A stretch of DNA of 41,385 nucleotides, from contig NIVC01004582.1 of the NCBI GenBank assembly GCA_002269645.1, forward strand, positions 1-41,385. The letters are read 5' to 3'. The position numbers and the translations under genes are program-made. Below are positions 4,301 to 33,300 of this stretch, piece by piece (the first letter of the stretch is position 1; each line of letters opens with the position of its first letter). This DNA comes from Macrostomum lignano. Taxonomy: Eukaryota. A model generated the notes under the pieces. It made no database searches and had not been told where the DNA came from. It worked only from the letters and a program-made list of their open reading frames with translations.

Positions 4301-5401
4301 GTCAGAGTTTGCAGGAATCGGTGCGGCGTGATTGAATTTCTGGACTCCCTGCTGGAATCTCCCAGGAAGAACATCTCTCTCAATGGCAGCTTTGTGGTTG
4401 GTAGAGATTTTTCCTGCCACTCCTGCCATCACGGAATAATGCACTGCAAAGTCAATGACGAAAACCCAGGCTGGAGGAAGAGAATCACTTGGCTTGAAAA
4501 CTTTTATATAGAAGAGAGTTCATCGCACCCAAATCTGTCTTCAATTGACGTTAGTGACGACACGCAGACGAGACCAGCAATAAGAGGTTCTCTCCGATTA
4601 GAGAGTTTCAGAAGCGAATGGAATGCACCTGGATTAGATACTCAAGAGTGCAAGGCTGTAGCCCTCATCGTTCACAACGTTGTCTTCCAGAAAAAGGAAC
4701 TATCTACTCGGTTCGGAAGTCAGTACGACTGCCAGCGAATGGCTGACACTTTGCTCAGGCTTGGCTACTCAGTGAGCATCAGGTCGAATCTCACCAAAGT
4801 AGAAATTGAAAGCGAATTAGACATGTTTTGCAGTGACGCACGACACGGCAGCTCAGTCGTAGTTGCTTTTATGTCTCACGGATGTCTCGGTGAAGTAGTT
4901 GGTTTCGACGGCGAATCAGCGAAGGAAAGTAAAATTCTAAAACGAATTTCCAAAGGAAACCGCACAAGTGAAAAGCAGCAATTGGTCATCTTCCAGAACT
5001 GTCTAGACCCTGGTCGATTGCCTAAATCAGAGCTGTCGTTTTTTCCTGGCATGATCGTCGCTCACTCGACTTCGCCGAATGAAAGCAGCTATCGAATGAC
5101 AGACAGAGGCAGTCGGTTCATCCAGTGTCTGTGCACTGTTCTCGACCTGTTCGCCGACACGTGCGACATTGCGTCAATGGTTCCTATCGTTAATTATGTG
5201 GTGCAAAACGCTACTTTTTATATGGGCATCAGCCAGCTGCCCTGGTGGTCTGTGCAGACAAGCAAGAAATTTTGGATTCGAGTCAATGAGCCTCCTCAAA
5301 GCAGTCGTGAATCGCGCCATCAAGCCAATTCAGCTAGGAACCAAACAACGAATGACTGCAGGGTTCAGGTGACGGAACTTCTTCAAAAAATGCGGTTGTA
5401 A
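1361..5401 (+). pseudogene. Caspase-family gene 1 (cryptic domain - dead caspase - cryptic domain - caspase); disrupted as assembled
   Basis: Predicted exons 1361-1411, 1661-3039, 3491-3592, 3939-5401 with AG/GT sites. Colinear with gene 2 (KPRALVII..HGDSCILVVLS..KPRLFILHEWD vs KPYALIV..HGDSCCLVVLSEG..KPRLIIIQEYQ). About six frameshifts between 1800 and 3040, plus an in-frame TAA at 4040-4042. The 5' start was not located. Confidence 0.8.
3939..5401 (+). CDS. Last exon of caspase gene 1: cryptic domain plus peptidase C14 domain with His/Cys retained
   Basis: STRFGSQYD, VVVAFMSHG, QQLVIFQNCLD, p10 GMIVAHSTSP..SYR..GSRFIQCLC. Phase-1 acceptor at 3938; premature TAA at 4040. Confidence 0.85.
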
Positions 5402-5771
5402 TAATCTACGCAGAGGCAGTTTATCAATTTGACTATTGTGGTGACTGAATAGGTTTAATTGCTTATATTGTAGCTACCAGTGGCAATATTTTAATTCTTA
5501 CATTTTTTCTTAGCGGTTCAAAATCTGATGAATTTCTGTGAGAGCGGTATATATGATTTTAACATTCAAACCATAAAAAATTTACTATTGACAACTGTTG
5601 GGACAATTAAAGATAACGCCTGTTTATAGGCGTTTGTAAATTTGTTTTACTTTGAAGACTTTTTACACAAATATTAAATTAATAAACTGCTAGTTAGCTT
5701 CTTGGTTAGAGGCAGGGGGCTGTTTACCCTGGTGCACTTTAAGCGACATTGTCACACAATCAGCGAGAGGC

Positions 5772-6040
5772 ATTACTGCCCATTCCGCCGGCTCCCCTAA
5801 GCAGGCACACAAGCAAGCGCGCGGATATGTATACAGTCATTCGTAAAGGCACACACGCACACAGGGGTGTACAGTGGCTTTAACAATTTTTATCGCTAGG
5901 CATGTACACTTTACTGTGTCTTGAGGTTGGCCCTTAAGGCCGTTACTTGCATGAGCAGAGCCAAGCTGACTGCACTTGGAATCGAGTATGGACCGCTGGC
6001 ACATCAGAACGCCGCGTTAGACCACAAGGCTACGGCCCCC
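5772..6040 (-). mobile_element. tRNA-derived SINE, family B
   Basis: Minus strand begins GGGGCCGTAGCCTTGTGGTCTAACGCG (A-box-like) with CTCGATTCC (B-box-like). Its 3' part GCCACTGTACACCCCTGTGTG..CGCGCGCTTG..GGGGAGCCGGCGGAATGGGCAGTAAT recurs at 22232-22370. Confidence 0.7.
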
Positions 6041-7174
6041 GTAATAAATTACTACGTAGTATAATAACATAATTATTACAAAAGGAGCGTGTTTCCGTAA
6101 GTGCTTCGATGGAACAAATTTGTTTTTATTGTTTTAATGAAAGACGTTAGACTGACCATTCTAAACAGTTTAAGCCAGTCTAAGTTAAAAACAGCAGCAG
6201 AAATGCTCTCGCTATAACTAACCGTTGCCGAATTTTTAATTGAGAAAAATGTTATCCTAGTGTATGTTTTCATTATTAAAACTAATTATAAATGATTACA
6301 AAGTTTTCCTGATTTTTAATGTTTTATTGAAAGAAGTATAATTAGCATTGGAGTACGAGTTGTATTTAATGTAATCGATCTTTTGAATTTGAATGTATCA
6401 AAATCGCAAACTGCGACTGGCCCTCGATAGTAGTGCATCACTGCATTAGATTTTCCTCCAGCTCTGATTATTTTATTTATAGTAAACATAAAACTAACAG
6501 GCTCGTAAACTGCTGATTCCTAATTCAATTGTTTATTTAAATGTGAACGATTATCTAATCAAGTACAACAACTAAGTTCAAATAAATCAAAGGAAACTAA
6601 GAGTTTTCCGCTTGTCACCAAATGTCTGCTTTTTTTATTTTGACCAACGTTTAGTATAACTTAGCTAGTTAATATATAGGTGTATCTACAAGTGTATAGG
6701 AGTACGAGTGCATATAGTAGTATAGAAAGTATATATACACGGTTACTAGCTTAGCTAGCTTAGAATTAGTTTTACATTACAAAAAAGCTTTATGGGATAT
6801 TTTAACTTTCCATCCAACAATCCAAATTTCCCCCTTTCAGATGAATTACAAAAAAATTGTTATATAACTAAGCCTTATCTGGTATTCGAAGAAACGATCC
6901 AACTCAGTATCGATGGCTGATTTTCCTGACACATTTGAGACCGAAAGCCCAGCTACTAGTAAGTGCAAACCTACAATAAAATTATTTAGCAAATAAATTC
7001 GAACAAACATAGGCTGATTGATTCCTCTGAGTAATTTTTCCCACATTTAAATTTTCAGTATTGCATGAAATTTCAACAGCTTCAGGTCTGTTAGATGTTT
7101 AAAACCAAATTTATTACTTATTTAAAATCATTCTCCAATACTTTTAACAAGCTGCTTATGCTTCATAATTGCAG

Positions 7175-10100
7175 AAACTACAGAAGCAAGTCGTGTTACT
7201 CGCAGTGAATTTGGTAAGATGCGCGCATAGGGGGGTTTGGGGGGGGGGGGCAGAGCTGCTCAGCGGTTCGTCGGATCGAAATTGGCCAAGAAGGGTTTTT
7301 CATGCTATTTAAACCCCCGATGACCAGTACTCAACACACAGAGAGTGTGCATGTTGGACGATTAGACAGTCAAGGGCCGCTGTACACCCTGTGTGAGCAT
7401 GTGTGTATGAATGTGTATTGGCGCGCTTGCATTTGCTCAGGAGTCAGAAAAGTTTTTAGGGCCTTCGGCGAGGGGTGCCACGAATATCCTACTAAATATT
7501 ATAAAAAGTATCTAATTGTTTCTTTTTAAATATATTTGTTTATAGATTAATTTTTGCTCTAAATTGCAACAAAAACGTACAGGCATCATTCAAGATGTAC
7601 AGGCAGTATCGAAGCTTCCCAGCTGGCAGGGAACATTCGGTGAGCACTTCTCAAAGACACATTAAGTAGACTTTTTTAGTTGTATTTTGCACTTCAACTA
7701 TAACATACAGTTTTGCAAAACTTTTACAATTGCAGCTCATCAAAGGCTACTGCTAGTATTCGCTGATGAGACTACAGCAAAGATGGACAGCTACATTGAA
7801 TTTATGAGCTCTCGTTGCGGCTTTTACACTGAGAAGCTCGCCCTGAACAGTCACCTTGCCGAATCCGAGACCCCGTCTCGAGCACCAGTCAGGCAGATTG
7901 TCTGCCTAGTGATTTTCTCCGCTTCGCAGCCACAGCGCTACATGAAGGCCTACCTAGATTTTCTAAACCAATTTGACGAATCCGTGGATCAGCTACTGCT
8001 GTACTGCAACTTGTCCGAGACAGAGACCCAAATCGATCAGGATCTGCGAAATCAATTCTGCAGCAGTGCTTTTCCTTATCGAAAGTCTAGCATTGCTTAC
8101 ACTTTCGGAACTTCCTATGGAGTCGGACGATTTTTTGATAAATTTAAGAACGATTGCAACTTGAAATGAAATCGTACTGTTGGCCTTTGTGACGTCCTGG
8201 AATCACTTGATATGGACCAGTCGTCTAAACTTTACATTAAAAAACCTAGAAGCGAAAAGTGTTTCTTCCCGCGCGAAATATTTTACCCTTGCAGCTCACA
8301 AGAACTGATCAAAATAGCCGGCATTGAGTCCTTCACCAACCGAGTTGACCCGGATACTCTGGCGTTATACGGTGATTTTATATATCTGAACAGCCGCATA
8401 CAAAAGCCGTACGCCTTGATCGTTCTAAACATCAAACTAGAGAGCGGCAAGACAAACAAGTCAATGCACGCAGACTGGAGGCGCCTTCTTTGGCTGTTTG
8501 ATAAGCTCCAGTTCGAGGTCAAAGACGTTCAAACAGACGCGTCAAGCTGCAGTCAGCTTGAAGAATGCGTGAAGACTTTTGCTGATTCTGAGTTGCACGG
8601 TGACTCTTGCTGCCTGGTTGTGCTCTCCGAAGGCTGGCTAGCAAACAGCTGCATTGGCAACATCAGTAAGAGCATGGCCTTCGGAAAGCTTATCAAGGGT
8701 AAGCCGAGGCTGATCATCATTCAGGAGTACCAACCGAAGTCCTCAGAAGCATCGGATGCTGCGCCGAAGTCGCTCCCCCAATTCCTGCCTGACGCAGTGG
8801 AAGCGATGCGATTGCAGTTCAGAAACGACAAGCCTGAGGTCAGAGTCCATCCGCTAAGCGGAACCGTCTGGTGTCAGTCCGAAGCGTCGGACACCGAAAG
8901 CGACAATGCGACACCGCTGATTGGATCCATCTGCGAGACTTTCATCAATCACTCAGCCATCGAGGATTTGGTTTCGATGATTTCAATCATCAACGAGAGA
9001 CTGCAGGACGCCCCACCCACTTGGTGTGTGCAAACTGCCAAACTTTTCTATGTTGGAAATACTGAGTTCACAGGGAGCGGAAGCGCAAGTAAGTTTGTTT
9101 GAGTTTTTGAAAAAATAAGCAGATTGTTTAATAAAGTTTTCTGTCAAAATTTTCAATTTCAGGCAAGGCTCAATCCGAAAATACCCCTGAAAATCCTGCA
9201 CCTGCAACCGATCCGTTAGCGACTTTGCAGACAATGCAAGGCTTAGCAGCAGAATCGGACAAGCCGCGTCCCATTCTCGATCAAAACAGTAAGTATGAAC
9301 TAAAAATTTGAGACAAAAATCGATTTGGAGGTCCCAAAATTTTTGAAGCTATAAACTTAATGAATTTCAGATCGCCCTGGAGTAGCACTGATTCTCACTG
9401 AAGGCTTGTTCGACAAAGTCCGAGATTATCAAATGTTTCTGGATTTTGCTGGCTTTCAAGTAATCTCGGAACGAATCGATGGTATTAGCGCTTCTTTGAG
9501 AGAAATTGTGACTTCATCGGCCGCTCAAAGCCCGCTAGCAGTTGTGCTGATCGTTAAGAAGCACCAGGCCGGAGCCGGCGTAGATGATGTAATTGCGTGC
9601 ATGTCGGAGACTGCAACCAAGCACGAAAACAGTTCCCTACTCATCTACTTTGAGATACTAGGTACTGATGAGCTGCCCTCTGAGATTCGCTTACCGGATG
9701 AACTGCCAGAGAAGTTCAGCATGGTTTGCTACCAGGGCACTCGAGACCGAATCAATCTCTGCCTTGACTTATTTCTAAAAACGCCGAGGAAGAATCTTAA
9801 AAGCAGTCCAATTGTTGGTTACAATTTTGAGAAGCTACGTACTAGGAAAAAAGAGCCAAAAATGATTTACCAATACAGCGATAGCAATCCTGGTTGGAAG
9901 CTGACACCCAAATGGCCAGAGAGCCGAAATATCAGGGGTGACGACATCATGAAACAGGACTTATTCCGCACAGCCAGTATGCGAAAGAAATGGTTCCCAA
10001 AGAAACCTATTCTACAGAATGTCACTATGCAGAGCAGGGCTCTAATCGTTCAGAATATTGTCTTCAAATCCGGCGAGATCAGATTTGGCACCCAGAACGA

Positions 10101-10800
10101 CTGTCAGAGGCTGACGGAATGTCTTACAGGCTTGGGGTTTCGAGTGTCAATCAGAACGAACCTCACGGCAGCTGAAATCTTGCAAACTGTGCAGCTCTTT
10201 GCTGGTGCCAACGACCACGGCCGCTCCTGCGCCTTGGCAATCATGTCCCACGGATATCTGGGAAAAATTTTGGGATGCGACGAAAGGAATGTGAAAGAAG
10301 CAGATATTCTTGATCAGCTGAGCAAGGGCAGTGGGCTTCAGGGTAGATCAAAGTTTGTTGTGTTTCAGGCGTGCAGGCGATTGGAAGAACCACATTCCAG
10401 CAGCTCAGCAGAGCGATTGATTAGACCCTATCCCGACATGGTGATTGCTCACTGCACCTCCCCAGAGGAGTTCGGTTATCGAAACCGCTTCCAAGGCAGC
10501 TGGTTCGTGCAGAGCCTGTGCTCCGTGCTGAATGAATGCGGAGCCGATGCGGACATCCTATCAGTGATAACTGCGGTGAACTGCATGGTCCTGACCTGCT
10601 TCAATCGGTCCGACTGTAAAGATGAGCGGACTCAGCAGCCGTGGTGGCTGCTGCAAACGAGAGGTGCTTTTGTGCTCGGCAGCGGCACACCAATGAAAGA
10701 GATCGGCGACACCAATCGTAGTGCAGCTGCACCTGCTGGGAGCCGAAAGTGTCGGGCAAGCGTTTGGAAAAAGTTGGAGGCATTCTTCGCGAGGTGGTGA
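7175..10800 (+). CDS. Caspase-family gene 2, about 1000 aa: cryptic domain - dead caspase - linker - cryptic domain - active caspase; one in-frame TGA at 8167-8169
   Basis: Predicted exons 7175-7213, 7583-7639 (weak acceptor), 7736-9088, 9163-9288, 9371-10800. All introns are phase 1 and internal exons are multiples of 3. ORFs 7687-8169 and 8212-9102 are in the same frame across the TGA. The start codon exon was not found. Confidence 0.8.
7375..7452 (+). mobile_element. Diverged SINE-B-like 3' tail inside a gene 2 intron
   Basis: GGCCGCTGTACACCCTGTGTGAG..GGCGCGCTTGC..CTCAGGAGTC resembles 5772-5880 (rc) and 22265-22350. Confidence 0.5.
8212..9088 (+). CDS. Catalytically dead caspase domain of gene 2
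   Basis: Caspase pattern ALIV..D..RL...F..L.FEV..HGDSCCLVVLS..KPRLIII..EDLVSM..IN..W.VQT.K.FY, but SHG is replaced by SEG and QACxG by QEYQP. Confidence 0.8.
9371..10800 (+). CDS. Last exon of gene 2: cryptic domain plus catalytically intact caspase
   Basis: IRFGTQND, ALAIMSHG, FVVFQACRR, p10 PDMVIAHCTSP..GYRN..GSWFVQSLC..QQP. Confidence 0.92.
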
Positions 10801-11267
10801 ATTCATACTTCTTGTGTTATTATTGAGAAACTTTGCTTATTTGCTTCTCAACTCTTGATTAGATAGTGTAATCCAATTTTTTTTCTCTGGCCTTATTATT
10901 TTTCAGCGTTAAATCTAACTGCTAATGCTTTGTTTGAGTCTTAATAATATGAAGATCGCAGAAATTATTAAAAAATGTCTGACATTGAGGGTTGCTACAA
11001 GTCCGATTGGTTGTCATAACAAAACTAAAGTGCCACTGTAGGAGACTATATGCTGCACCGCAAATTCTAAAAACATTAGACGTTTTAACTCAAATTAAAA
11101 AAGTGGTCACTATTTTTGCTTGAGTTCCACAAATAGAATGTCGATTTCGCCCCAAGAACTGATGCATCTGTTGATCTATATTTTATGGCTGTTGCAGTTG
11201 CCGAGGTATTTCAGTTAGTAAATACCTGTAGGTCCCAAATGCCCATATTTTGCATTATTCGATACTC

Positions 11268-11525
11268 GTAACCGACAGCTCAGCCGCAGCTACTGCGCGG
11301 CGCATCTGAAGGCAGCGTACGGCTGTTCAGTCCAAGAACTGAGGGGGGGGGGTCACCACACACCCTCAATTACCCCAGCGAATGCTGGTAGCTGAGTGAC
11401 CTGAAGCACTGCAGAGTTTAGTGTCTTGCTTAAGAACACAAATTGTTCCGTATGGGTCGAGAATCGAACCCCCGATCTTTCAGTCGTGAGTCCGACGCTC
11501 TAGCCACTAGCTAGGTCACAACCCC
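11268..11525 (-). mobile_element. tRNA-derived SINE, family A
   Basis: Reverse-complement copy of 33863-34135; head contains TAGTGGCTAGAGCGTCGGACTC and GGTTCGATTCT (A/B boxes). Confidence 0.85.
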
Positions 11526-12259
11526 TCATTATATTTCGTATTATTTGAGACATTGAGCCAGTTGGAACAATCTCTAAGCGAAACTGACCTTTTATGTGTG
11601 CGTGAAGTGCAACGAAAAAGTGACCTCTTATTATTTTGGGGTGACACATCCAGTGTTTTTGGGATCGTACGCTAATTGTATCGATCTAATACAACAGGTG
11701 ATATGCAACAACTTCTTTTTTATTATTTTTTTTTATCTGATTATTTTAAAGCCTAATAAAACTGAAGCATGACAAAACTAACAAGAAAACTGTAAACTGT
11801 AAACAAGTGAACTGAAGCACTGTAACTTCCTGTACGTCGTATTTCATTGGCTCGAATTTGAGCGAGAACTTTAAACATTGTCAGATACTGTTGAATTTTT
11901 TTAATGCTACGAGAGTACGATTTAGTAGTCTGACTAATACTCTCTTATCTAGCGATGGCGAATAACTATTTTTATTGTCTTTAAAAATTCTAAATAGACT
12001 GGTACCTACATATTTACAGGCTTCATGTTGTATCAGATACACTTCAGTGTAAAAACTATAGTCTCTAATTCTCAGTGCTGTGTCATTGCAATGTTTCGCA
12101 AATTTGCGGCTTCTTTGCCAACGAGTATCTAATTGCTCAAGGACAGGCTGTCGGATATTTGTTTAAGTTTCCTAGCTCGTACATACAATGGCTTAAAACA
12201 CGCAAGAAAAAGTACGACCTTATCTTCATGGCGGGACTTGTACTTTTAATTCCCTCTAT

Positions 12260-13054
<795 letters not shown>

Positions 13055-13547
13055 GGCTATGCCAGCATTTTGTCATAGATAGATAGATTTGTCTGATGCA
13101 TTAAGTTAGTAATTGCTTTCCCGCTGCACTCTCATATTTCAAAAATAAAAAGTAAGCTAAAAAAAGTTTTCACCGTGTTTCGCAGAACTGATGAAATAGT
13201 AAATTCGGGATAGTCCGTTTATATTAAGTTTGATAGTTAAATAAAAACGGGATAGCAACGTGTCCCTAGATAAAGAAATGATAATCGACGGGGTTTCTAA
13301 TATATAATGACGGCTGACTTGGAGAGGAAAAAGGTTATTGTTACACACTTTTTAACAACTACGCTCGTATTAGTCACAATCTGAGAGCCGATTTTCGTTC
13401 AAATAAATAACATGCTTTGAATTTGAACTCAAGAAGATTCTATCGTAATGTAGAACAGTTTAGAGAAGACGGCAATATAGGATCTTGAAACAGCAAATAT
13501 TTGATACTGAGCATAAATAGCTTTACTGCATTCAACCAGTTTTTCTT

Positions 13548-15217
13548 CTATAAGTGATTCTCCGACACCTCTCCGGAGAGAGGAATTCGGCTTGACTTGG
13601 GCTGCTGTTGATCCACCCGATCCGCCATCGCTTCTGCCGGCCCTTCAAATAGACTCTGCGTACTAACAAGGAAAAACTTCTTATGCGTCTGCACTGTCCA
13701 GCATGGCAGCTGTAGTGACAGAACTTCTCCATTCAGTTCAGGCTGTTTAAATCCGCGAACCATGGCGAAGTTGATCCTGGTGAGCATGGAGACCAGATCC
13801 TCTTTATGGGCGAACTCGTAAAAGGTTGCGCACAGGGCTAAAATGAAGCGACTGCCGTAACTACTTCGAAAAGCGAAGTCCCCAGGCGATGTCGAATGGG
13901 CCACGATCAGCCCGCTCTGCTCAGGCGGCGGCTCAGATCCGCTGGCAGGATTGCCTTGGTGAATGCCCACCTGGATGGCCATCTCCGTCATCATCGCGCA
14001 GACTCTCTCCGAGTTCGCCGCCAGTTTTCCGGCGACGGCCTCGCTCAAATCGATCCGACAGGCTTGAATGAGAACCAGTCTGGGCTTGGCCCTGACACCG
14101 GCGCCTCTGGACATCAGTTGGAGTATTTCAAACTCTTCAACGATGCCCAATTTTTCCCCTCTTCTGTAGTCTGTGCCGCAGATAATGCCGAGGCTACCGT
14201 GCGACATGATAGCCAGGACGCAAGCGTCTCCATGGCTGTCATCGTTGGCAAAGTTTCTCACCGCCTCCCGCATCTGCTCAGCTGTCAGGTTAACCATTTC
14301 TGTCACACTGAACTGCATAAGAGTCAGCACGTGACGCAGGTTCTTAAAATCCATGTAGCTCTCGGGTCGATTCGAGGTTGGAAGCACGAAACTTACGTTA
14401 TGAATTATCAGAGCTTTTTTAGTAGCACGATTTCCAATGTAGTAAACCAGATCGTCAATCGGATTGGGATCAGTCTTCAGTCTCTCGGCTGTTTCGGCGT
14501 CCAGCTGCTTCAGGTGCGATCCGTCGCCAATAATTCTGGCGAACTCCTCCCTGTCCTTCAGCATTTTCACCGGCAGCCGTGGCTGGATGAACTCGCCAGT
14601 CAAGCCATTCTGCGTCTTCAACCTGAACTTATCGAAAACTTCGCTCTCGATTTCGTACTGAATCAACTCGCCGAGACCTCTGCTGTGCCATTTTTTCTTT
14701 TTTAGATCAGCGAGCAGCTGCAGGAAGGTCCTCACTTCATCTCGCATCTTCACGGTGATGCTCATGAGCACCATGTTGCGCAGATTCCTTCGACATTCGT
14801 CTGGCCTCATCAGCTTAACGCAGTCGGCTTTCTCTTCGGAGTACGTGTTGGAGATTCTGCAGAATATAAGCAGCTTCTGCGTTGAGTCATTTGCAGCCAA
14901 AAGCAGTTTGACAATTTCGTCAAGGTCGGCGGGTTCGTCAGACTCAAGCAGTACGACCACAACCAGCTGTTTGGCGTCCTTCGCTACGCCCTCGATTCCA
15001 TTTTTTATGTCGTTAAAATCGGTCGATGGTACATAGTTGACAATGAATCCGCAGCGGTCCAAGAAGCACTCATAGTCGCGAACTTCTAAGCAGCAGTTGA
15101 CTTCCTGATTGTATGTCTGGCTGAATATAACAGCCCTGCATTGTCCACTGAATGAAGGCAGCTGGACGGGTTTCGGCGTTGGCGTTGTTTGCGGACTCGG
15201 TAGCAAAATTGGTTCGA
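13548..15217 (-). CDS. Caspase-family gene 3, main exon: cryptic domain plus catalytically intact caspase
   Basis: Uninterrupted 552-aa frame with NRPESYMD, CVLAIMSHG, PRLVLIQACRI and p10 GLIVAHSTSPG.FAFRSSYGSRFI..EDLVSMLTRIN. Phase-1 acceptor TTTCAG at 15218; upstream exon not identified. Confidence 0.92.
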
Positions 15218-16195
15218 CTGAAATTTAAACAAATTTAGAATACTTTTTCAAAACTACTGATGTGCACTGCTCATGGTCTTAGTACAATATATAGCATATA
15301 GTAGCATATATATTGCAATAGTTACGTAACGAGCTTCCATTTTATATCTGCTGTACGCTCGTATACTGCTACCTGTACCAGCATAGAAGTGCTTTGTCAG
15401 TGTCCCAGCAGCCCACACTGCACCAGGCCGAAAATTCGCGTCCAAAATCCATATTAGGCAATCTCTCTACCAGAAGCGTCCCAATGCCCGAAGACCACTC
15501 GCTATATAATACTAATAGTAACAACAGTGGTCTGGGGCTTAGAAACCTTCACTGGCACTACAAACGCGGACCTGATATAAGTCTATCTAGCTCTATTTTA
15601 AATGATGAGACTGTAAAGCAAAGGACTGAGTTTGGTGCCACTGTCACTCAGGTAAGAGTCATTCGAATTTCGCTTAAAAGTATTTCAAATAGTCTAAAGA
15701 TTCATTGACAACCTCAAAGATATTAAAAAATTAATATCTGTTAATATAAATTTAGAACGGCTTCGACATAAAGAAAAACGAAAGCGTACCTTCGCCTTCG
15801 GTTTCGTTTGGAATATTTGTGGGAGCAGTCGATCGTTTAGGGGCATCGCAAGCCTCGGCCATGGTGGGTAGCATCGGATGCTATATAGCTTGTTTTGTGG
15901 CTTCTGCTTGAAAACACAGCAACAAGAATGTATAGCTACAGTGTATAGCTGCTTTTTATAGAACCTACAGTTAGAGGCTACGTGTATAGAGCCCATTTAT
16001 GGTGCCAAACGTAAATTGTGACGTCTGTTTCTATAATTAAACAGTTCTGGAAAAGAGATTTGCTAGATAGATACGCTTTATATGGCCTAAGGGCCCAGAT
16101 ATTCTGCAGTTTAATACAGACTGCTTTGCATGATATGGAAGATACGAATTCAAGAAATATACGAGCGTACGATGCAATTTACGCAACTGTAATAC

Positions 16196-17112
16196 TGAAG
16201 AGTTTAAGAGTGGTGATCAGTCACTCAAAAACTCCCACTTCTAGACACGGGGGAACAAGTGCCTAGGTATTTATCAGTTCAAATAACTTACTTCAGCGGA
16301 TCCTCTTGGGGTCGGCAGCCGGTGGAGTTCTGTGGCGCGTCGGGATAGCAAGCTTGCTGAGCGGTTACGGCGACCGGTTCCGGTGAACCACTGTTTTTCT
16401 TTGGTGTCCTTAACTTTATCTGTGGGTCGACCAAACGAGAGCGAATCAGAACTTCTTAACGGTCCTCGAGCTCGGAATTCACAATAGAACGTGCGCCCTA
16501 ATGAACAATTGAATTCTCTAATTTTCTGTGATAGGTCCTCCTGAAGGGCGGCTTCTTCGTTACGTCCGAAACGTAACGGATAACTCAATTAAATCAATAA
16601 ATCCTCTAGGAATATCCTAGGAAACAAGGAGGCCTTTCTCAAATGTATCGACAATGAACTGCTCTCGTATACTCAATCAATCACTTTATTAGCGCTACTA
16701 ACAATTAACTAAATCGGGTAAACGCTTACCAATTGGACAGGGATGGTCCCTCAGAGATTGGTCTTCTTATTTCTTCGGTGTCTTCTTAGAGACCGCTCCG
16801 AGTCTGAATTTTGACTTGAATTTTCACTTATATTTATAGCAAAATTTTGGAAAAAAACCGGTTTGGGATTGGGTATTTACTTAGGTCAAAAATGTTTGAT
16901 TAAGCGGTCATGCATGTTTGAGCATTACCATATATGGAGTTAAACAAATACAGCTGTTGAAATCCGGTTCCTTGATCAAACAATGTAGGGTTCTAAATCA
17001 TTCTGTTTGCGCGTGATTCCTAAAATAGATATGACTCATTTTGAAAGAAATTGACTTCCTTAGAATATTACTTTAAGTAGAGCATTACGGTATGGTCTAA
17101 TAACTCTCTACA
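16196..17112 (-). repeat. 3' LTR (917 bp)
   Basis: Same length as 19990-20906, with no difference seen on visual reading; TATAAA at 16833-16838 and AATAAA at 16685-16690 on the minus strand. Confidence 0.95.
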
Positions 17113-17115
17113 ATA

Positions 17116-17127
17116 TCTCCCCTTTTC
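17116..17127 (-). promoter_or_regulatory. Polypurine tract
   Basis: Minus strand GAAAAGGGGAGA, 3 nt before the TG of the 3' LTR. Confidence 0.85.
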
Positions 17128-17305: not shown

Positions 17306-17905
17306 TTAATAGGAAAGCGTATTATTCAGTATATCGTTTACTTTGGTTGTCAATCTCGCGAGTGGCCACAGTAAGTGCTGTATCGGCGTAAATTGTGTTG
17401 ATTCGGTGGCGTTGAGGAATTCCAGGTAGATCTCTTCAGTTGTACTCGTAGTATTTATTGGATGCGCCGCATATTGACGTACCAAGTCAAAAAGATATTC
17501 CAAATGGTCTCTCTTGTTGAATGGTATTGGCCATGTTCGTATAGCTGTTGCTAGTTCCTTGGCCGTCATACTGTCCATGGTCTCCTTTGTAAGTTGGATC
17601 TTTGGTAATGTTGTTGTTCCGGCGTAAATTTCCTTAGATATTGGCGCTGCACAAGTTATGCAATGCTTATAGTCGCGGCACCGAATTTTTAGAGCACAAT
17701 CTCGGCAGACCCAGTGTCCGTTGGCGCACATCCTTTGTTGCGGTGTTGTATTGCATACCTGGCTCAGGGTAGGTGGTGCGCGGCATAGCGGGCATTTGTC
17801 TATTCTATCCGTTGTGCAGCAGTTATAGCAGAACTTATGCCCATGCTGACAGTAGACATACTGTTCAGTGTCTTCATAACAAACAATGCACTCGTCGCTA
17901 TCCAT
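17306..17905 (-). CDS. Cargo ORF B: tandem SINA-type RING fingers plus C-terminal R-T-WPIP domain
   Basis: MDSDECIVC..CQHGHKFCYNC..CPLC, then VC..CANGHWVCRDC..CITC (first Cys of finger 2 lost). Likely ATG at 17905 by analogy with ORF A; the open frame extends to 18052. Confidence 0.85.
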   Translation of the reverse strand: MDSDECIVCYEDTEQYVYCQHGHKFCYNCCTTDRIDKCPLCRAPPTLSQVCNTTPQQRMCANGHWVCRDCALKIRCRDYKHCITCAAPISKEIYAGTTTLPKIQLTKETMDSMTAKELATAIRTWPIPFNKRDHLEYLFDLVRQYAAHPINTTSTTEEIYLEFLNATESTQFTPIQHLLWPLARLTTKVNDILNNTLSY

Positions 17906-17978
17906 GTCTGAAAAATGGTCAATGTGATAAGTAATATCTGTGCAAGAATGGTTGCAATATCTGTGGGTGCATGGTATT

Positions 17979-18628
17979 TTAATCAATTTCTGAAGCGGAA
18001 CTATTATAGTCATATGATTCTTGGGGTGGTAATATATAAGACAAGTCCTCATTACGCAGAATGAGTGCAGGTAGAGTTGTACAGAGGATGGGGCATGGGT
18101 GAAAATTCATATCGTTAACAATTTTAAACAGCTTATGTTCAATTTCTTGTGGAGATAATTGCCGGAGTCTAGAACCGTAGGAAGAGGAATAGCGAACGAG
18201 GTATTTACGTGTTTTATGAGCAGCACGTGGTATGGGCCATGATCTGAGGCGGATAATTATAGCATGTGATGGAAAAAGAGCATAAGTGAATGGGTGAAGC
18301 TGTAGGTTGTAGTCCGCTTGAATGCATGCAAGTTTGTTGTTAACTTTAGGTAAAGGGTGGCATCGCATATAGGACACTGACAAATGGAGCGATAAGCAAG
18401 CTTCTTAATACATTGTGTGCACATAAAATGTTGATTTAAGCAATATTGTTCAGTGCGCCAGGAGTTGCATATCATGCATTGACGGAGATTACCTCGACAC
18501 ATAGGGCAATTTTTTAAAGGTTTTTTGTAATGTGCAAGGCTTAAGCAAGAACCACACACCTGGTGTCTATTGACACATATACAAGGTAGTTTACATGAAA
18601 ATTCTCCGAGACAGATAGGACAATCCAT
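17979..18628 (-). CDS. Cargo ORF A: tandem SINA-type RING fingers plus R-S-WPIP domain, split by a -1 frameshift near 18270
   Basis: MDCPIC..CVNRHQVCGSC..CPMC and CMIC..CLNQHFMCTQC..CPIC in 18257-18628. IRLRSWPIP in the -1 frame (17979-18383) matches AIRTWPIP of ORF B. Confidence 0.8.
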
Positions 18629-18759
18629 TGTCGTGTTTGTCGTAGTTGTGTGAGCGTTTGTAGGAAAACAAGGATTTAGTCGCCTCTTACGACAAGCTTG
18701 AGGAAGCTGTAGTGCTATTCTTTATCCCGGTCACTACACGGGGACATGAAGCGAATAAT

Positions 18760-19623
18760 TTAACGAGGTCTTAGGTTGTACGTATGACCGACAGGTGGTG
18801 CGTTTGTTGTTTGTGTTTCGGCGTGTGCAGTGGCAATGTGTTTATTTGTTGTTTTTGTGTGGTCTGGATTTTGTAGGTCTGGGAGGAATGTAGTGTCGTT
18901 AGTGATACGTTTTAGACGTTGAATGTGAACATAGAACTGAGGTTGATGTGGATCCTGGATATTAGCGAGGCGTGCCGTTGTTGCCGATACCAATGCCGTT
19001 ACTCGGAATGGTCCTTTGTATTTAAGTGCGTGTTTATGTGTATGTTGCGCAGGGTAATGTAGGTAAACGATGTCTCCGACTTGTAGAGTAGATGTATGAT
19101 TGCTGGTGGTGACTACTGCCTGTTGATTTTCTAAATTGTGTTTCGCGATTTGCCATGCCAGGTGTAGCTGCGAAGTAAACTTTTGTAGTGTTGTTGGCGT
19201 TTCCACGTACTGAGAAGGTAATAGTTTTTGAACTAGTAGGCTTGGTGGCTGATGCAACGCTTTAATAATTTTGCGGACGTCATCGACGAAAGTAAGGAAG
19301 GATTCCGTCGGACTCATTTTTCGATTATGAAGTTTGTGTAGAAGCACAGATCGATTGGTTCCACATCTGGCGAATTGTGCTCTCAGTTGTGTAACTAAAG
19401 TATGATAGTCTTGCTGTGCGGCGGCATTTAGTTTGCCATAAATTTCTCGAGCAGTACCTTCTAACAGTGGAGGAAGAAGAAGTGCCTTTTCTGGATTTTG
19501 TAGTCCGTATTCGCGAGTTACAAGGTCGAAGTGTTCAATGAAGGTGTTAAAATCTTTATCCATAGTATACATTCCAACAGTTTCCTTGACATCGCGATGC
19601 ACTGTAGGGTTTCTTCGAGCCAT
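18760..19623 (-). CDS. Gag (capsid-like) N-terminus fused in frame to integrase C-terminal (GPY/F) tail
   Basis: FIEHFDLV..YG..KALLLPPLLEGTAREIY..YHTLVTQLRAQF..L..RKM...ESFLTF is a retrotransposon Gag pattern, followed by LQVGDIVYL..KYKGPFRV..VHIQRLK and terminal YNLRPR. ATG at 19623; junction near 19255. Confidence 0.85.
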   Translation of the reverse strand: MARRNPTVHRDVKETVGMYTMDKDFNTFIEHFDLVTREYGLQNPEKALLLPPLLEGTAREIYGKLNAAAQQDYHTLVTQLRAQFARCGTNRSVLLHKLHNRKMSPTESFLTFVDDVRKIIKALHQPPSLLVQKLLPSQYVETPTTLQKFTSQLHLAWQIAKHNLENQQAVVTTSNHTSTLQVGDIVYLHYPAQHTHKHALKYKGPFRVTALVSATTARLANIQDPHQPQFYVHIQRLKRITNDTTFLPDLQNPDHTKTTNKHIATAHAETQTTNAPPVGHTYNLRPR

Positions 19624-19970: not shown

Positions 19971-19987
19971 CCTGGGCGAGATCACCA
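19971..19987 (-). promoter_or_regulatory. Primer-binding site, probably tRNA-Val type
   Basis: Minus strand TGGTGATCTCGCCCAGG, 2 nt after the 5' LTR; complementary to a tRNA 3' end CCUGGGCGAGAUCACCA. The Val assignment is inferred from resemblance to animal tRNA-Val 3' ends. Confidence 0.8.
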
Positions 19988-19989
19988 GT

Positions 19990-20906
19990 TGAAGAGTTTA
20001 AGAGTGGTGATCAGTCACTCAAAAACTCCCACTTCTAGACACGGGGGAACAAGTGCCTAGGTATTTATCAGTTCAAATAACTTACTTCAGCGGATCCTCT
20101 TGGGGTCGGCAGCCGGTGGAGTTCTGTGGCGCGTCGGGATAGCAAGCTTGCTGAGCGGTTACGGCGACCGGTTCCGGTGAACCACTGTTTTTCTTTGGTG
20201 TCCTTAACTTTATCTGTGGGTCGACCAAACGAGAGCGAATCAGAACTTCTTAACGGTCCTCGAGCTCGGAATTCACAATAGAACGTGCGCCCTAATGAAC
20301 AATTGAATTCTCTAATTTTCTGTGATAGGTCCTCCTGAAGGGCGGCTTCTTCGTTACGTCCGAAACGTAACGGATAACTCAATTAAATCAATAAATCCTC
20401 TAGGAATATCCTAGGAAACAAGGAGGCCTTTCTCAAATGTATCGACAATGAACTGCTCTCGTATACTCAATCAATCACTTTATTAGCGCTACTAACAATT
20501 AACTAAATCGGGTAAACGCTTACCAATTGGACAGGGATGGTCCCTCAGAGATTGGTCTTCTTATTTCTTCGGTGTCTTCTTAGAGACCGCTCCGAGTCTG
20601 AATTTTGACTTGAATTTTCACTTATATTTATAGCAAAATTTTGGAAAAAAACCGGTTTGGGATTGGGTATTTACTTAGGTCAAAAATGTTTGATTAAGCG
20701 GTCATGCATGTTTGAGCATTACCATATATGGAGTTAAACAAATACAGCTGTTGAAATCCGGTTCCTTGATCAAACAATGTAGGGTTCTAAATCATTCTGT
20801 TTGCGCGTGATTCCTAAAATAGATATGACTCATTTTGAAAGAAATTGACTTCCTTAGAATATTACTTTAAGTAGAGCATTACGGTATGGTCTAATAACTC
20901 TCTACA
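19990..20906 (-). repeat. 5' LTR (917 bp)
   Basis: Direct repeat of 16196-17112; TATAAA at 20627-20632 and AATAAA at 20479-20484 on the minus strand. Confidence 0.95.
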
Positions 20907-21604
20907 ATACACTACCGCTACAGTTTGACCAGTGCAATTTGCATTCGTTGCGGATGTGTTAGTTAAAGCATTGATAAATAAATCCGAAGATATAGCTACA
21001 CAAATTACCTTCAGGGGCACATTGTAGCTCTACCTGTTATTAGCCATTCTAAAAGAAAAGAGTCGAGTTACAGCTTCTGCATGATACCTTTGGTTTAATT
21101 TGTTTAATCAAATTCCTTAGCCTAATTAAGAAGCTAACGTTATGGAGCTGATTTTTGGGTGCCTTAATACTTAATTTGTTGAAAATTTAACTCAATGAAA
21201 GTACAAGTTAAGGAATATTTGACTTAGATAGAAATATAACTGCTAATTTGATAAATAAATTGCTAAGAGTTCTAGGACATATTGACAGAATCGTTATCTA
21301 GTTGATAACAATTTCTAGAAGCGAAGAATGTTTAAGTAGTTATTGTGACTTCAGCACCGATACATAAGCGAGTACATGTAAGGCTTTTCGTCCAAGTTTG
21401 ATTCACAATTGACTCAAAGTTATCAAAGTGACGTACTTGAATGCAAACTTTCATAATCGGATTTCTTTATTTGATAAAATTGTCTCTTAGCAAAAGTCAA
21501 ATCATAGCAGCGTTATCAATTTTAGAACATAGTCATATTTCGCGCATTGTCCAGCTGTCTTACATTTTTAATTCATTCTCTTTGCATTTTTCATTCTCTT
21601 CTGT

Positions 21605-22187
21605 TTGAAGATTGGGGGCCGGTGATTTTGCAGATTGAGAGCCGGTGGTTTTGAAGATTGAGAGCCGGTGTTTTTGCAGATTGAGAGCCGGTGGTTTTGG
21701 AGATCGGGGGCCGGTGATTTTGGAGATCGGGGGCCGGTGATTTTGGAGATTGAGAGCCGGTGGTTTTGGAGATTGGGGGCCGGTGATTTTGGAGATTGAG
21801 AGCCGGTGGTTTTGGAGATCGGGGGCCGGTGATTTTGGAGATTGAGAGCCGGTGGTTTTGGAGATTGGGGGCCGGTGATTTTGGAGATTGAGAGCCGGTG
21901 GTTTTGGAGATTGGGGGCCGGTGGTTTTGGAGATTGGGCGCTGGTGGTTTTGGAGATTGGGGGCCGGTGATTTTGAAGATTGGGGGCCGGTGGTTTTGGA
22001 GATTGGGCGCTGGTGGTTTTGGAGATTGGGGGCCGGTGATTTTGAAGATTGGGGGCCGGTGGTTTTGGAGATTGGGCGCTGGTGGTTTTGGAGATTGGGG
22101 GCCGGTGATTTTGGAGATTGGGGGCCGGTGGTTTTGGAGATTAGGGGCTGGTGGTTTTGGAGATTGGGGGCTGGTGGTTTTGGAGAT
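21605..22187. repeat. 23-bp minisatellite (GGAGATTGGGGGCCGGTGGTTTT variants), about 25 copies
   Basis: Directly visible; the 23-aa periodicity of the overlapping ORFs equals 3 units. Confidence 0.97.
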
Positions 22188-22231
22188 TTGTTGTTTCACT
22201 ACATGATTTGAATTCGGCTCCTGCAAATGCC

Positions 22232-22370
22232 TAAGTGTACATGCCGAACGATAAATACAGTTAGGGCCACTGTGCACTCACTGTGTGAGTGTGTGCCTGT
22301 GCGTATGACTGCGTACGTATCCGCGCGCTTGTGTGCCTGCTCAGGGGAGTCGGCGAAATGGGCAGTAATT
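22232..22370 (+). mobile_element. 3' portion of SINE family B
   Basis: Aligns by eye with the reverse complement of 5772-5910 (AAGTGTACATGCC..GCCACTGT..CGCGCGCTTG..GGCG(A/G)AATGGGCAGTAAT). Confidence 0.75.
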
Positions 22371-22602: not shown

Positions 22603-23439
22603 CTACGAACGAATGTAGAACTCTCCAGGTGTTTTGTACAGAGCCGGATGAGGAATCAGCGGATACCTCAGCAGGTGGCAGGCAAGTCGCAGCCCATCAA
22701 ACAGCACAGCCTCGCACTGACCAGCTTTGCACCTGGAAGTGCACTCGAGGCTGCTCATGGCGTTGTGAGTCCAGTAGAGCGGGCTGGTGTAGTTTGTGGC
22801 TGTAGTAATTGCGATGTAGTTTCTGGGTGACTCAGCAAAGCTGACGCACTCTCGGCTGCCTGAAAATATTTGTTTTGAAAAGGAACTATATACCAAATAG
22901 CTTTGATTTTCGTTTTGTTCAGAAAAATCGTAACTAACTACCTGAGTACGTCAAGGCGTAAATAGAGTTTCTATCGCGCCCGCCGCACATCTGAGAGCGA
23001 TCCCCAGGCAGGACATGTTGCACTCTTCTTTGCTGGCTGCAAACCCGTACCTGCCGTACGTATTGGAACAAGAGCAACAGCAGGCGTGCTGTACGCCAAA
23101 GTAGCTGAAGCCTCCAAGAGAGCAGACTGACGCACACAACTCCAGAGTCATGTTTCTGTCAAAAACCACAGCCTGCTGGTAAAACATGCTGTGTCCGCCA
23201 AAATAGTGCACACCGAACAGCGCATTCAGATCTCTGGCCCCGGGCTTGTTTGAGTCCACGAAGCATCCAATATAGCTGCTGGTTGCCGGCCTTGCCTCAG
23301 CAGTTTGGCAGGATGTCAGCACTAGCAGGATGAGCAGAGAAGCTGAAGGCAACAAGGCAAGAAGACGAAATGAACATCTTCCATCTTGCTGCTGTTGGAT
23401 TAGCACAACTGTTTTAGTAGCCATCATTCTTCTTTCCAC
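22603..23439 (-). CDS. Secreted WSC-domain + PAN/apple-like protein, copy A (one -1 frameshift near 23005)
   Basis: Signal-peptide-like LLILLVLTSC..AEA; WSC pattern YIGCFVD..MTLELCASVC..YFGVQ..C.CS..YG..CNMSC.G..MCGG..NSIY; phase-1 intron 22941-22860; exon 2 with SSLECTSRCKAGQCEAVLFD..ACHLL. Confidence 0.85.
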
Positions 23440-25899: not shown

Positions 25900-26731
25900 T
25901 CACACTCGAACGTAGAACTCTCCGGTCGTGTTGTACAGATCCGGATAAGGAATCAGCGGATACCTCAACAGGTGACAGGCCCGTCGACGCTCATCAAACA
26001 GCACAGCCTCGCACTGGCCAGCTTTGCACCTGGCGGTGCAATCCAGGCTGCTCATCACGTGGTCAGTCCAGTAGAGCGGGTCGGTGTAGGATGTGGGTGC
26101 CCTAATGGCGATGTAGTTCCTTGGAGCCTTTTTAAAACCGATGCACTTAGGACTTTCTGAAAATGATTTTTTTTTCAGAATAATCAAGTTAACAATACTT
26201 CATAAGATTTTAATAAGGCTCTTAGAATCGTATCATTGGCTGAGTAGAAATGAACCCACCTGGATATGTCAGGGCGTAAACTGAGTTCCTTCCAAAGCCG
26301 CCACATATTTGTGAGTGATTTCCTTTGCATGTCGTGTTGCACCGGCTTTCGCTAGCAGCCATTCCGTACCGGCCGTAGGAATTCGAACAGAAACAGTGGC
26401 AATAGTATTGCAAGCCAAAATACTTGAAGACTCCAAGTGAGCAGATTGCGCTGCACTTCTCGATGGTCATGCTTGAACAGTTGTAGGCCGTGCCATAGTA
26501 TGCGCTCATGGAATGTCCTCCGCTACCGAAGTACGAAACACGGAACAGGCCGTCGAGGTCTCTGGCTCCATAGGTTCCCGAATCAAGGTAGCATCCTAAA
26601 TAGCTGAAATTGGCCGGGCGTCCCTCGGCAGCAGGCGGTGACGTCATCAGGACAGCAACGGCGGCAAGTGACAGAATAGAAGCGAAACACGCTGTACAGG
26701 AGTCTCTGATCAGCTTTTTAGTCGTCGGCAT
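25900..26731 (-). CDS. Secreted WSC-domain + PAN/apple-like protein, copy B (intact)
   Basis: ATG at 26731, hydrophobic signal peptide, WSC pattern YLGCYLD..MTIEKCSAIC..YFGLQY..CFCS..CNTTCKG..ICGG..NSVY; phase-1 intron 26259-26157; exon 2 26156-25900 is highly similar to copy A. Confidence 0.9.
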
Positions 26732-30340: not shown

Positions 30341-33300
30341 TTAGCTATCGCGGTCTCTTTGTTGCATAATCACTTCGTGAGCCAGCTGCACGGCGATGAA
30401 GATATCTTTATCGCCTCCTTTGTCTGGGTGATTTTTCAACTGGGCGGCTCTGTAGGCTTCCTGCAGTTCTTCATCAGAGCAGTACTTGTTCACATTTAAT
30501 AGCTGGTAAGCAGCTTCAGTAACAATTTCTTCCAACTGAGCCAACTGCTTCATTTTCAGTGCCTCTGATTCTGCTTGGTCTTCTTCGAAAAACATGCTCC
30601 AAAATTTGTCGCCCAAGTAGTGGTCAGCAAGGACGGAAAAAATAACGATGCCAGCTTCTACGAGTAGCACACATGGGCCACCGATCACCATCAAAGCTAG
30701 AATCGTTCCTGCAACAATTTCAAAAAAACATTATTGCCAAATTTTAAATAGAATTTTAATCTAACACAAATTCCCAAAGGAAGCTCAAGAGTACATGTAG
30801 CGTCAAACTATAAGAGATATGCTCGATAGTATACTCATGCCCCCAATAAGTTGACCCCGGGCTTGTACGATTTGCACCCTAAAATACTCCTTCACACTCA
30901 GATTAAATGAGACTGAGTCTACATGTCCACATGCCTGACGACTATAGAAAGCCAGACCTGCATGTATGAGTACGTGTCTGCGTACATAATTGTGTGCTCA
31001 GGGTGCAGCCTGCGGAATGAACATAACTACTTATCGCATCACTGACTGTGGCTCGACTGCAGTCTCGCTAACTAGCCAAACGAGACTAGCCAAACACATC
31101 AGTTTTTAAAGCCAGACAGTCTCACCTCCAGTAGTGGCTGCCACAGTGCCGCCGAGTCTGGCCAGTTGCTTGTTCCTCTCCGCTTTGCTCAGTAGACTGC
31201 GACGGTAAGCCATTAGAATTTGATACGCAGAGTAGGTGGTTGTTCCGACAAGCATTGCTGGGCCCAAAAATCTTCCGAACCCGGTTAAGGCCTTGCCAAT
31301 CGTGGTGTAGCCAACGCTTTTGCAGATTTGTCCCAAAACATTAGGGGATGTGACAACAGCTCTGATGACGCCGCCTCTGACAGCGCCGAACCCCGCGCTT
31401 CTGGCTATCCTGATGGCGCACTCGGAGCTGCTGATCTCCCCCGCGAGGTACCGGCGGACTTCCTCGTCGCAGGAGATCACGCCGGACAAAACTGCATCTA
31501 CGAAAGCGCCAATAGCAGCTTCTAGACCAATCTTTTTGATAGCGAAGTCCAGACTCTTGGTTCGGACTGAAGGATTCCTTAATCTGGCTTCTAGCCAGCT
31601 CTTGGCTTTGTTTTCAAGATTGGCAACCTCCTTTTCCAATTGATTTCGCCTGGCTTTTTGCTTTTCAAATTCATTGTTTTTTGCTTGAAGATGCCGCGAC
31701 AGACCCTTTTCAAAAGCCTCCCGTCTCTGCTGCTTGGTAAAGTTACTCTTTAGCTTTTCGATATCACTTTGCAATTTGGAAATGTCTTTGTTGCACTGGG
31801 ATAGTTTTTCCCTATCACTGTCTCTTAGGCTATTCATTGTTGACTCCAGTTCCTTGTCCTGAACAGACTTCTGATGTTCTGCTGAATATTCGTCTTGAGT
31901 CCTTAGTTTTTCGCGTTTATTCTTCAACTTTTCAAGACGCTCTTCAGCATTTCTTAGCTCCGTCGGCTTATCAATTAGTTCATATATTTTGTCGTCCAGC
32001 ATCTTTTGGTATTCGGCAATGTTGCCTTCATCCGGAACAAAAACTTGCCGCGCGCTGCCATCATGTTTGACGATGGCTTCGTGCTCTTGCAGGGACTTGA
32101 TTCGAGCCTCGAGTTCAGCAACTTCTTGAATACCTTTTCTGAGCCCGTCGACTTCTTTCTGCAGAGCGTCAATCTTTTTTATTTCGGCTAACTTCGGTTT
32201 TATCTCAGCAAACACTGAGCTCATGGTCTTGTCCTGAAGGAAATCCCGAAATGTTTCCCTGTTCTGATCGAGGAACGCCCGAATGTTATCAACAGTGTCG
32301 GTCTCGATTTCAAAGCCAATCCGGATTCTTGATTCTGCAGCACCTTCAGTGGCATCTGCGATGCCTTTGGGGCCAATCACGGTCACATTGTCCAGCTGCA
32401 GAGCTTCTGGGTAACCTTTAGCTTGTCCAAACTCGCGCTTTGATAGATTGCGGTTCCACTTGGCCCGCCAGTTGTTGATCGTGTCCACAAGGTTTTCAGG
32501 TGTGTCCGTGTACTTGAACTGCACGGCAAAGTACTCGCCAGTGTGGGTGTTTTGAAAGACTGCGTCCGTGTACTCGGGCGTCTTCAATTCGACATGATTC
32601 TTTATGGTGATCTTCCCGTTCCCATCGCCGGCGTGCAGCACTATGGGAGCGCCGCGCCTCTGCACCTCCGCCATCACCTTCGCTATTTGAAGCTCCTCGA
32701 AAGTGATGCCTAGAAGTTCATTCGGATAATAGTTTGGCTTGAGACTTTCTAGACAATTTGGCTTCTTCTTTAGCATTTCCGTTGCTGCCTTGACACCGCC
32801 ATTGCGAAGTTCTTTCACAAACTGCGCCCACGGTTCGTCTGTCTCAAGTGAGCGGGTTGCATTTCGAGCTGCGTTGGATTGATATCCGATGTTTTTAGCG
32901 GCCAATTGAGCACCCTCTTTTTCGGACTTTGCCTGCGTGAAGTTTTTGTATGCTTTTTTAAAGTCCTCCACCTCCTGTAAGCTTATGTCTTTCAACGCTT
33001 GGTCTCTCGATTTAACCCTGCCCGGATCGCACTGAATCCGCAGCTTAATTTTATGAGTAAATGTCGCATCGGCTCTCTTGTCACAGGCGCCGCTAAACAC
33101 AAGATTTACAATTTTCGTCCAAGTTTTCAGCTTGACTTCCTTCGCAACCGAATACTCAATTGTTCCCATTGTGGTAGCGGTGAGTTTGCCTTTAGCAATG
33201 AACACTGGCAGTTTAAGCTCCCGATCGGTGCCATTTAAACTGTATTTAGCCTTGTAGAGTTCCATGACCACCTCACAGCTGACAGACTCTGGTGAGCACA

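Follow-up and report, generated by a model that had tools for sequence, protein, structure and literature searches.

The window analyzed here, a 41,385-nt stretch of Macrostomum lignano contig NIVC01004582.1 (assembly GCA_002269645.1), contains a young, non-autonomous and already damaged LTR element. On balance, we read it as a deleted copy of an envelope-bearing Gypsy lineage whose tandem RING genes would supply accessory ubiquitin E3 ligases aimed at host factors.

Structure of the element in the window

The features of the element are collected in Table 1. In comparison with a 99%-identical copy on contig C717, ~6.6 kb of gag-env-pol were missing, and the deletion junction was found inside the 287-aa ORF, near 19243-19252, with an overlap of ~10 nt. 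The protease (PR), RT, RNase H and integrase core were absent. The three-ORF coding is not intact in the window copy, a deletion derivative, and errantivirus membership is a property of the lineage, not of this copy as an autonomous element.

The initial annotation had placed two RING genes, each as one ORF, on the same strand between the integrase tail and the polypurine tract. This location was correct for the RING coding sequence (integrase tail stop at 18760), but gene A was not a single ORF: owing to a 1-base frameshift near 18358, its fingers lie in one ORF (18257-18628, 123 aa) and its WPIP part in another (17979-18368). Gene A was open across 216 aa in near-identical sister copies; the window copy is no longer able to produce the full gene A protein. 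The start of gene B is most likely at 17905 and not at 18052, because a splice acceptor lies 2 nt upstream and, in six sister copies, the frame is not open as far back as the upstream ATG. Two tandem fingers per gene proved to be the family pattern, except that the first zinc-ligand position of finger 2 of gene B (17764) is Ser in the window copy. Three complete C-x2-C..C-x3-H-x2-C-x2-C fingers were counted in the 2.9-kb interior, against none in 2000 shuffles, and the RSWPIP and RTWPIP motifs were both present. The A/C-rich bias attributed to the two genes was seen in gene B (A.33, C.25, versus.35 and.26 in pol) and less so in gene A (T.31), and a different subfamily has cargo without it (A.19, G.31).

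Table 1. Features of the LTR element, in positions of the window
Feature	Position	Strand	Remarks
Whole LTR element	20906 to 16196	-	4.7 kb, interior 2.9 kb
5' LTR	19990..20906	-	917 bp, TG...CA, identical to 3' LTR
3' LTR	16196..17112	-	917 bp
4-bp target site duplication	5' copy 20907..20910; 3' copy 16192..16195		
Splice donor in 5' LTR	20084..20086	-	Exon ends 20086, intron starts GTAAGT
Primer-binding site	19974..19987	-	2 nt after 5' LTR
287-aa ORF, Gag N-terminus fused to integrase C-terminal tail	18760..19623	-	
Conserved structured RNA, predicted H-type pseudoknot and two hairpins	18676..18743	-	Between pol stop and gene A
RING gene A (double RING and helical WP domain)	17979..18628	-	Frameshifted
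Splice acceptor, pyrimidine run and CAG	17908..17916	-	2 nt before gene B ATG
RING gene B	17306..17905	-	199 aa, open
Polypurine tract	17116..17127	-	

The parent lineage and its predicted gB-like envelope

The lineage shows the hallmarks of a Ty3/Gypsy LTR retrotransposon (Metaviridae), namely TG...CA LTRs, a primer-binding site, a polypurine tract and a target duplication within the expected 4-6 bp, and the Pol order PR-RT-RH-IN, deleted in the window copy, is present in full-length relatives. The C717 copy (~11.3 kb) encodes a single 2480-aa Gag-ENV-Pol frame, in which Gag with its zinc knuckle is followed by a signal-like stretch (~aa 593-612), a cysteine-bearing ectodomain in which an RHKR site occurs at 925, a TM-like stretch (~1195-1217), PR, RT, RNase H and IN. 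When a model of the env ectodomain, of low confidence (pLDDT 57), was submitted to Foldseek, all listed rows were herpesvirus gB (best E 1.7e-18, TM 0.23-0.36). The env Pfam match was Monjiviricetes_fusion, and a class III (gB-like) fusion fold is predicted for the lineage env from this model.

The RING genes had been described as standing in the env position. By location this is right, and they occupy the usual place of env; however, the gB-type env of the parent lineage sits between Gag and protease, that is, it has moved upstream and is still present. Since the parent lineage retains this env in its Gag-ENV-Pol frame, the RING genes supplement env and do not replace it.

GAG-ENV-POL elements with a gB-type env have been described in Platyhelminthes (Chary and Hayashi, PMC13524379). 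Mlig_errantivirus_2 of M. lignano and the gB-type errantiviruses share with the present lineage the Gag-ENV-Pol order and the gB-like env, and the 12-nt primer-binding site of Mlig_errantivirus_2 is that of the window element. The terms RING, accessory, zinc finger and ubiquitin do not occur in the main text of that paper, and the lineage studied here goes beyond the published elements in having up to four added RING genes, a splice from the LTR to the cargo and a pseudoknot that is conserved. The M. lignano errantivirus listed there (PMC13524379) has an LTR of 863, a length of 10,591 bp and 16 copies, and a truncated-cargo subfamily found here has an LTR of 864 and, by arithmetic, a length of ~10.6 kb. 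Judging from this match of sizes, which is not a sequence comparison, the published element may correspond to the truncated-cargo subfamily, and this may be why the cargo escaped notice.

A survey of the openly searchable literature turned up no LTR element described as carrying RING genes, in agreement with the earlier remark that no described Gypsy lineage was known to have this exact cargo. Bdelloid LTR retrotransposons have a family-specific non-env ORF3 downstream of pol (Rodriguez, Kenefick, Arkhipova, PMC5408684). In the accessible part of that article, the ORF3 products are GDSL esterases, DEDDy exonucleases, and TM and coiled-coil proteins, and neither RING nor ubiquitin is mentioned. 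The bdelloid ORF3 substitutes for env; the lineage described here has an env as well.

Distribution of the RING genes

Searches of genome G000 gave at least 150 matches to gene A (150 of 237 candidates scored) and at least 132 to gene B (150 of 183 candidates scored). The family consists of ~200-aa RING-RING-helical proteins, encoded by up to four genes in tandem after integrase: intact elements have two or three RING genes, with gene A first, and four were found in one nested cassette. From 120 stretches around gene A/B matches and the window itself, 76 blocks with 116 cassettes were obtained. Seventy cassettes started within 600 bp of an integrase match and a further 40 shared flanking DNA with integrase-linked elements, so that 110 of the 116 lay in an element context. 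The proposed long residence and duplication inside the element lineage are supported. The other six cassettes showed neither sign, and no intact host gene could be demonstrated among them; three of them were inside arrays of the same elements and the others were short. In a quick RT-RH tree of 56 rows, built from G000 sequences only, 41 rows fell into one clade (SH-aLRT 99), all with whole or truncated cargo, a count that is biased because nearly all rows were fetched through a RING match.

Nested arrays of the same lineage were observed in G000 at C2121:1-70000, C87:225001-285000, C1130:1-50000, C272:355001-425000, C1405:240001-290000 and C4009:30001-60000. In each of them, every RING match and close polyprotein match was on one strand, which recalls a unistrand piRNA cluster or could reflect self-targeted insertion.

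Full-length matches among 1.84 billion representative proteins were limited to P0001, a UniRef M. lignano gene model stitched from RING cargo, and three unnamed proteins of 206-214 aa. Protein P0002 clustered with gene A in a quick tree with long branches, which implies that the split between A and non-A genes predates these sources. Word-indexed protein searches gave one additional protein match; they yielded two matches with the mixed alignment and none with gene A, and are insensitive here because the gene A query missed P0002.

Sister Gag-ENV-Pol lineages were found via env, at 24-35% identity. RING genes were present in none of their 17 loci, 14 of which were read 3.5 kb past the last pol match. 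Other 3' ORFs, of two families, were found in 10 of the 17; with these unexplained ORFs, Gag-ENV-Pol elements may carry overlooked accessory genes more generally. The first is an unrelated ORF of ~318 aa after pol with no Pfam match (L124, L125, L126, L130, L131, L139 and L140). The second, of 254-260 aa (L133, L134 and L135), also follows pol and had a sub-threshold Pfam match only; its ATG is preceded by CAG, as if it were spliced in the same way as gene B.

No close intron-containing host orthologue was found for the RING cargo. The host SIAH gene (L141) and the TRIM-like genes on C210 gave matches of at most 24 bits, which spanned finger 1 only, apart from one weak longer match; with such weak matches, no donor can be named. 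The genes at L142-L145 on C210 of G000 are tandem host TRIM-like genes with a C-x3-H RING and a B-box-like motif.

Fold and signatures of the RING proteins

The model of the intact gene B product (pLDDT 89, pTM 0.81) consisted of two zinc-finger modules followed by five or six helices. With Foldseek, stretches of ~45 residues superposed on the RINGs of IDOL, cIAP2, BIRC7 and RNF8 at ~2 A, the matches being weak by E-value (none at E<=0.001). With VIA, RINGs were matched by residues 1-46 and, independently, by residues 44-96. Finger 2 alone matched RNF146 and Nse1, and the sequence matches of finger 1 in the PDB were RING1B, SIAH1 and TRIM21. As modelled, the protein has the eight zinc ligands and the fold of a RING.

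In order to compare the two fingers, 25 of 29 proteins that fit the two-finger pattern were used; the four that were dropped include the window gene B. Arg follows the last Cys in finger 1 of all 25 proteins and in finger 2 of none. Finger 1 also has Pro in 24/25 and a hydrophobic I/V before the second Cys in 21/25, and these residues are kept across 20-40% overall protein identity. From RING biochemistry, we take the Arg after the last Cys to mark finger 1 as the likely E2-activating site. An E3-type signature is thus apparent in finger 1 only, and the RING genes are likely to encode ubiquitin E3 ligases. The E3-like character given to these proteins in the initial annotation is supported by the modelled RING fold and by the signature of finger 1; finger 2 lacks the Arg.

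Trp-Pro is the one invariant feature of the helical domain. The domain had no clear match in the Atlas, nor in the PDB with Foldseek or VIA (best Z 5.9, a score that common arrangements also reach); this does not make the helical fold new. Without a clear structural or sequence match, nothing in this domain points to a specific host target.

The C-x3-H spacing had been read as that of a SINA/SIAH RING. SIAH proteins combine a single RING with two zinc fingers and a TRAF-like beta domain. The cargo does share the C-x3-H RING with SINA/SIAH; it consists, however, of a pair of RINGs separated by 4-6 residues and followed by a helical domain, its C-terminal half is all helical with no Pfam family for SIAH zinc fingers or a TRAF-like domain, and the C-x3-H RING also occurs in the host TRIM-like genes. 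Sina_RING scored 19-29 bits by hmmscan, below the cut-off of 29.3; in a genome search, 10 element places reached 30-33 bits. The RING cargo proteins are not members of the SIAH family. They are not RBR proteins either: no IBR family was found between the fingers (Pfam).

Small virus-encoded RING E3 effectors include herpesvirus ICP0 and RING proteins of baculoviruses and giant viruses. The cargo resembles these effectors and the accessory genes of complex retroviruses in encoding small RING proteins and in the putative use of a spliced subgenomic RNA. The lentiviral proteins Vif, Vpx and Vpu act by hijacking host ligases and are not known to contain a RING themselves. The look-alikes listed from the Atlas and BFVD were viral RING or hypothetical viral proteins (all Atlas rows were viral, and BFVD is viral by design). 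These matches differed in being weak and at the level of the finger only (score < 0.9, E > 0.01), and so do not indicate homology of the whole protein; no whole-length relative was found in scans of BFVD, the Atlas, IMG/VR and metagenomes.

Splice joint and structured RNA

Contigs of four coded runs (X1, X5, X6 and X19), which hold no strand or level information, were aligned to the C717 copy. X1, X5 and X6 are putative RNA by the guess of a tool, none of them being recorded as RNA, and X19 is DNA-like. Parts of pol had no contig cover in X1, X5 and X6, to which we attach no weight. A joint at 563-9322, which skips 8758 bases with GT..AG borders, links the 5' LTR with the position 2 nt upstream of the gene B ATG. 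This joint was present in X1 and X6, which come from two studies and are two of the three putative RNA runs, and absent from X5 and the DNA-like X19. It was observed on the sister copy L121 and then mapped to the window, where a canonical donor and acceptor are found (20086 and 17907). The same donor motif lies ~95 nt before the LTR end in three of six elements checked, and 13 of the 18 listed non-A genes have a CAG at most 12 nt before the ATG. A spliced LTR-to-gene form of gene B is therefore supported in the putative RNA runs; a spliced subgenomic RNA had been suggested as a check, and the joint in these runs speaks against a lack of transcription.

No joint to gene A was among those listed, and gene A has no adjacent CAG acceptor. 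A contig of X1 covers most of gene A with no gap and thus does not derive from the allele of the window; the deletion joint of the window itself was not listed in any of the four runs.

Two other deletion joints were present in all four runs. One belongs to a second non-autonomous form (L006-L011), in which Gag and part of env are fused to the integrase tail; this form is 6.9 kb long in five complete copies and both of its RING genes are open. The other, a third deletion joint (L121:1801-9877), leads from Gag to the end of gene B with a 7-nt overlap.

Upstream of gene A, a 68-nt RNA element was conserved across families with differing flanks. Its predicted pseudoknot-plus-hairpins was paired in 95.9% of cells and two pairs of the pseudoknot helix were changed on both sides, figures that come from 16 related sequences with few independent events and for a structure derived from the same sequences. 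The 18-nt core of the element had 101 exact matches in G000, compared with none for the reversed control. Plain folding of the spacer was unremarkable (z -0.6), as expected if a pseudoknot is involved. The only Rfam match among 4227 families was at chance level (E 9.8), and a scan of 12 sister loci revealed no comparable pseudoknot downstream of pol (in L123 and L124, the stretch was not the true pol end). Candidate roles are internal initiation, a decay block or a replication signal, any of which the pseudoknot may serve; gene A might be translated with its help, by internal entry or from a decay-resistant subgenomic RNA. Readthrough from pol to gene A was considered and rejected for the window lineage, in which the 131-nt spacer is out of frame. 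The LTR contained no three-unit heat-shock element.

Selection, apparent exchange and loss of the RING genes

Selection was followed in 72 pairs of open genes, which are non-independent and were chosen for their open frames. All 27 pairs with dS 0.1-2, which are between families, had dN/dS values of 0.12-0.30. In eight pairs with dS > 2 the values were 0.15-0.26, 30 pairs were saturated, and the seven very close pairs, with few changes, were scattered from 0.21 to 2.57. The comparison of copies called for in the initial annotation thus indicates that the RING genes are under purifying selection.

In other families, identity to the C717 copy was 74-99% for RT-RH, 63-94% for env and 70-97% for Gag, and 38-86% for gene A and 29-44% for the best gene B match. 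In the C583 element, the RT was 99% identical to that of C717, yet the second RING gene was just 33% identical, which suggests an exchange of cargo. Furthermore, numerous elements hold only a truncated gene A. The RT-RH of these elements and that of two-gene copies are identical, so the cargo is dispensable in cis, and many copies have multiplied with truncated cargo, which counts against the reading favored here. Such copies could be helped in trans, or be less reliant on the cargo.

Proposed function and alternatives

According to the reading favored here, finger 1 is predicted to bind an E2 and finger 2 would be structural. The fast-evolving helical domain is predicted to select host restriction or silencing proteins for degradation, so the target would be host defence. 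By analogy with viral RING effectors, a counter-silencing or anti-death function may be considered.

A broader version of this proposal, which we put forward tentatively and regard as somewhat less probable than its opposite, would make these elements an invertebrate "complex retrovirus". The move of env into the Gag-Pol frame would have left the 3' slot open to accessory genes that can be swapped; the double-RING ligases would destroy antiviral or piRNA factors of the flatworm; expression would use alternative splicing from the LTR donor and an undescribed pseudoknot; and an arms race would account for duplication, exchange and loss.

The alternative that stands up best, although we consider it unlikely, is that the RING proteins serve the particle, by ubiquitinating or binding the element's own Gag or Env and steering processing, trafficking or budding. 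The arenavirus Z protein, a myristoylated RING matrix protein, would be the model. Lassa Z is among the weak fold matches and the lineage polyprotein encodes a membrane glycoprotein. In addition, gene A of the C2121, C240, C102 and C11 families starts with MGNxxS(K/R), which we take to be a myristoylation-like motif, and the truncated C102/C3 form keeps this start and both fingers. The window lineage, however, has no such start, and since RING genes are lacking in the 17 sister Gag-ENV-Pol loci, this architecture does not need them. The cargo has also been swapped and changed much faster than Gag or Env, a better fit to a changing host target. In the other main branch, the MGNxxS(K/R) start was observed in gene A at L041:9187-9852, L058:2689-3354, L081 and L090, and it was retained even in truncated subfamilies.

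It is less probable still that the RING proteins are non-catalytic regulators or decoys, which would aid transcription or export of the element RNA, or jam host RING ligases through their E2s or partners. A precedent for an LTR element making a regulator from spliced RNA is CERV of C. elegans Cer1 (PMC10309623), likewise a Gypsy accessory protein, which differs in its RNA-export function; "RING finger" and "RING domain" do not occur in the accessible part of that article. The missing Arg of finger 2 (25/25) would suit such a role, but finger 1 keeps its I/V (21/25), Pro and Arg despite 20-40% identity, as for a working ligase.

Domestication, meaning that the genes have come to work for the host and that the element context is only a record of their past, seems very improbable. 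Long same-strand arrays of these elements do exist and the UniRef model P0001 is stitched from such cargo; yet open copies sit at many loci in young elements with 99-100% identical LTRs, and the cassettes outside an element context, among those read, are decayed fragments (C356 visibly so; C1465 has stops). Passive capture of a host RING mRNA followed by neutral decay, suggested by the broken window copy and by a C-x3-H finger common to host SIAH and TRIM-like genes, is contradicted by the dN/dS of 0.12-0.30 at dS up to 2; the conserved splice acceptors and host matches of 24 bits or less that lie nearly all over finger 1 only also speak against it, and we regard it as hardly credible.

If the RING proteins are ligases aimed at host factors, a family with present, absent and swapped variants could reveal its substrates, and with them the host factors that restrain envelope-bearing retroelements in an animal capable of regeneration. 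To our knowledge, few transposon-encoded counter-defence proteins are known in animals. Transgenesis has been reported in M. lignano (PMC12801592).

Other features of the window

Clustered caspase-domain (Peptidase_C14) ORFs, which occur on both strands, adjoin the element (818-14810); four of them were scored by Pfam. The ORFs 4268-5401 and 8212-9102 have FQNCL and IQEYQ, respectively, in place of the QACR found in two others, and may thus be inactive paralogues. We abandoned a link between the element and this cluster, since an ORF scan of 60 loci showed no separate caspase-motif ORF, the QAC tags lying in RING ORFs.

Two related, secreted-looking ORFs were found at 22951-23427 and 26222-26731, the second being a WSC-domain protein (Pfam). 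A 906-aa intronless ORF (31106-33826) has long coiled-coil-like stretches and no Pfam family above the cut-off. Finally, simple or tandem repeats with units of 4, 23 and 28 nt, which yield spurious long ORFs, were observed at 12105-13100, 21489-22303 and 37872-40497.
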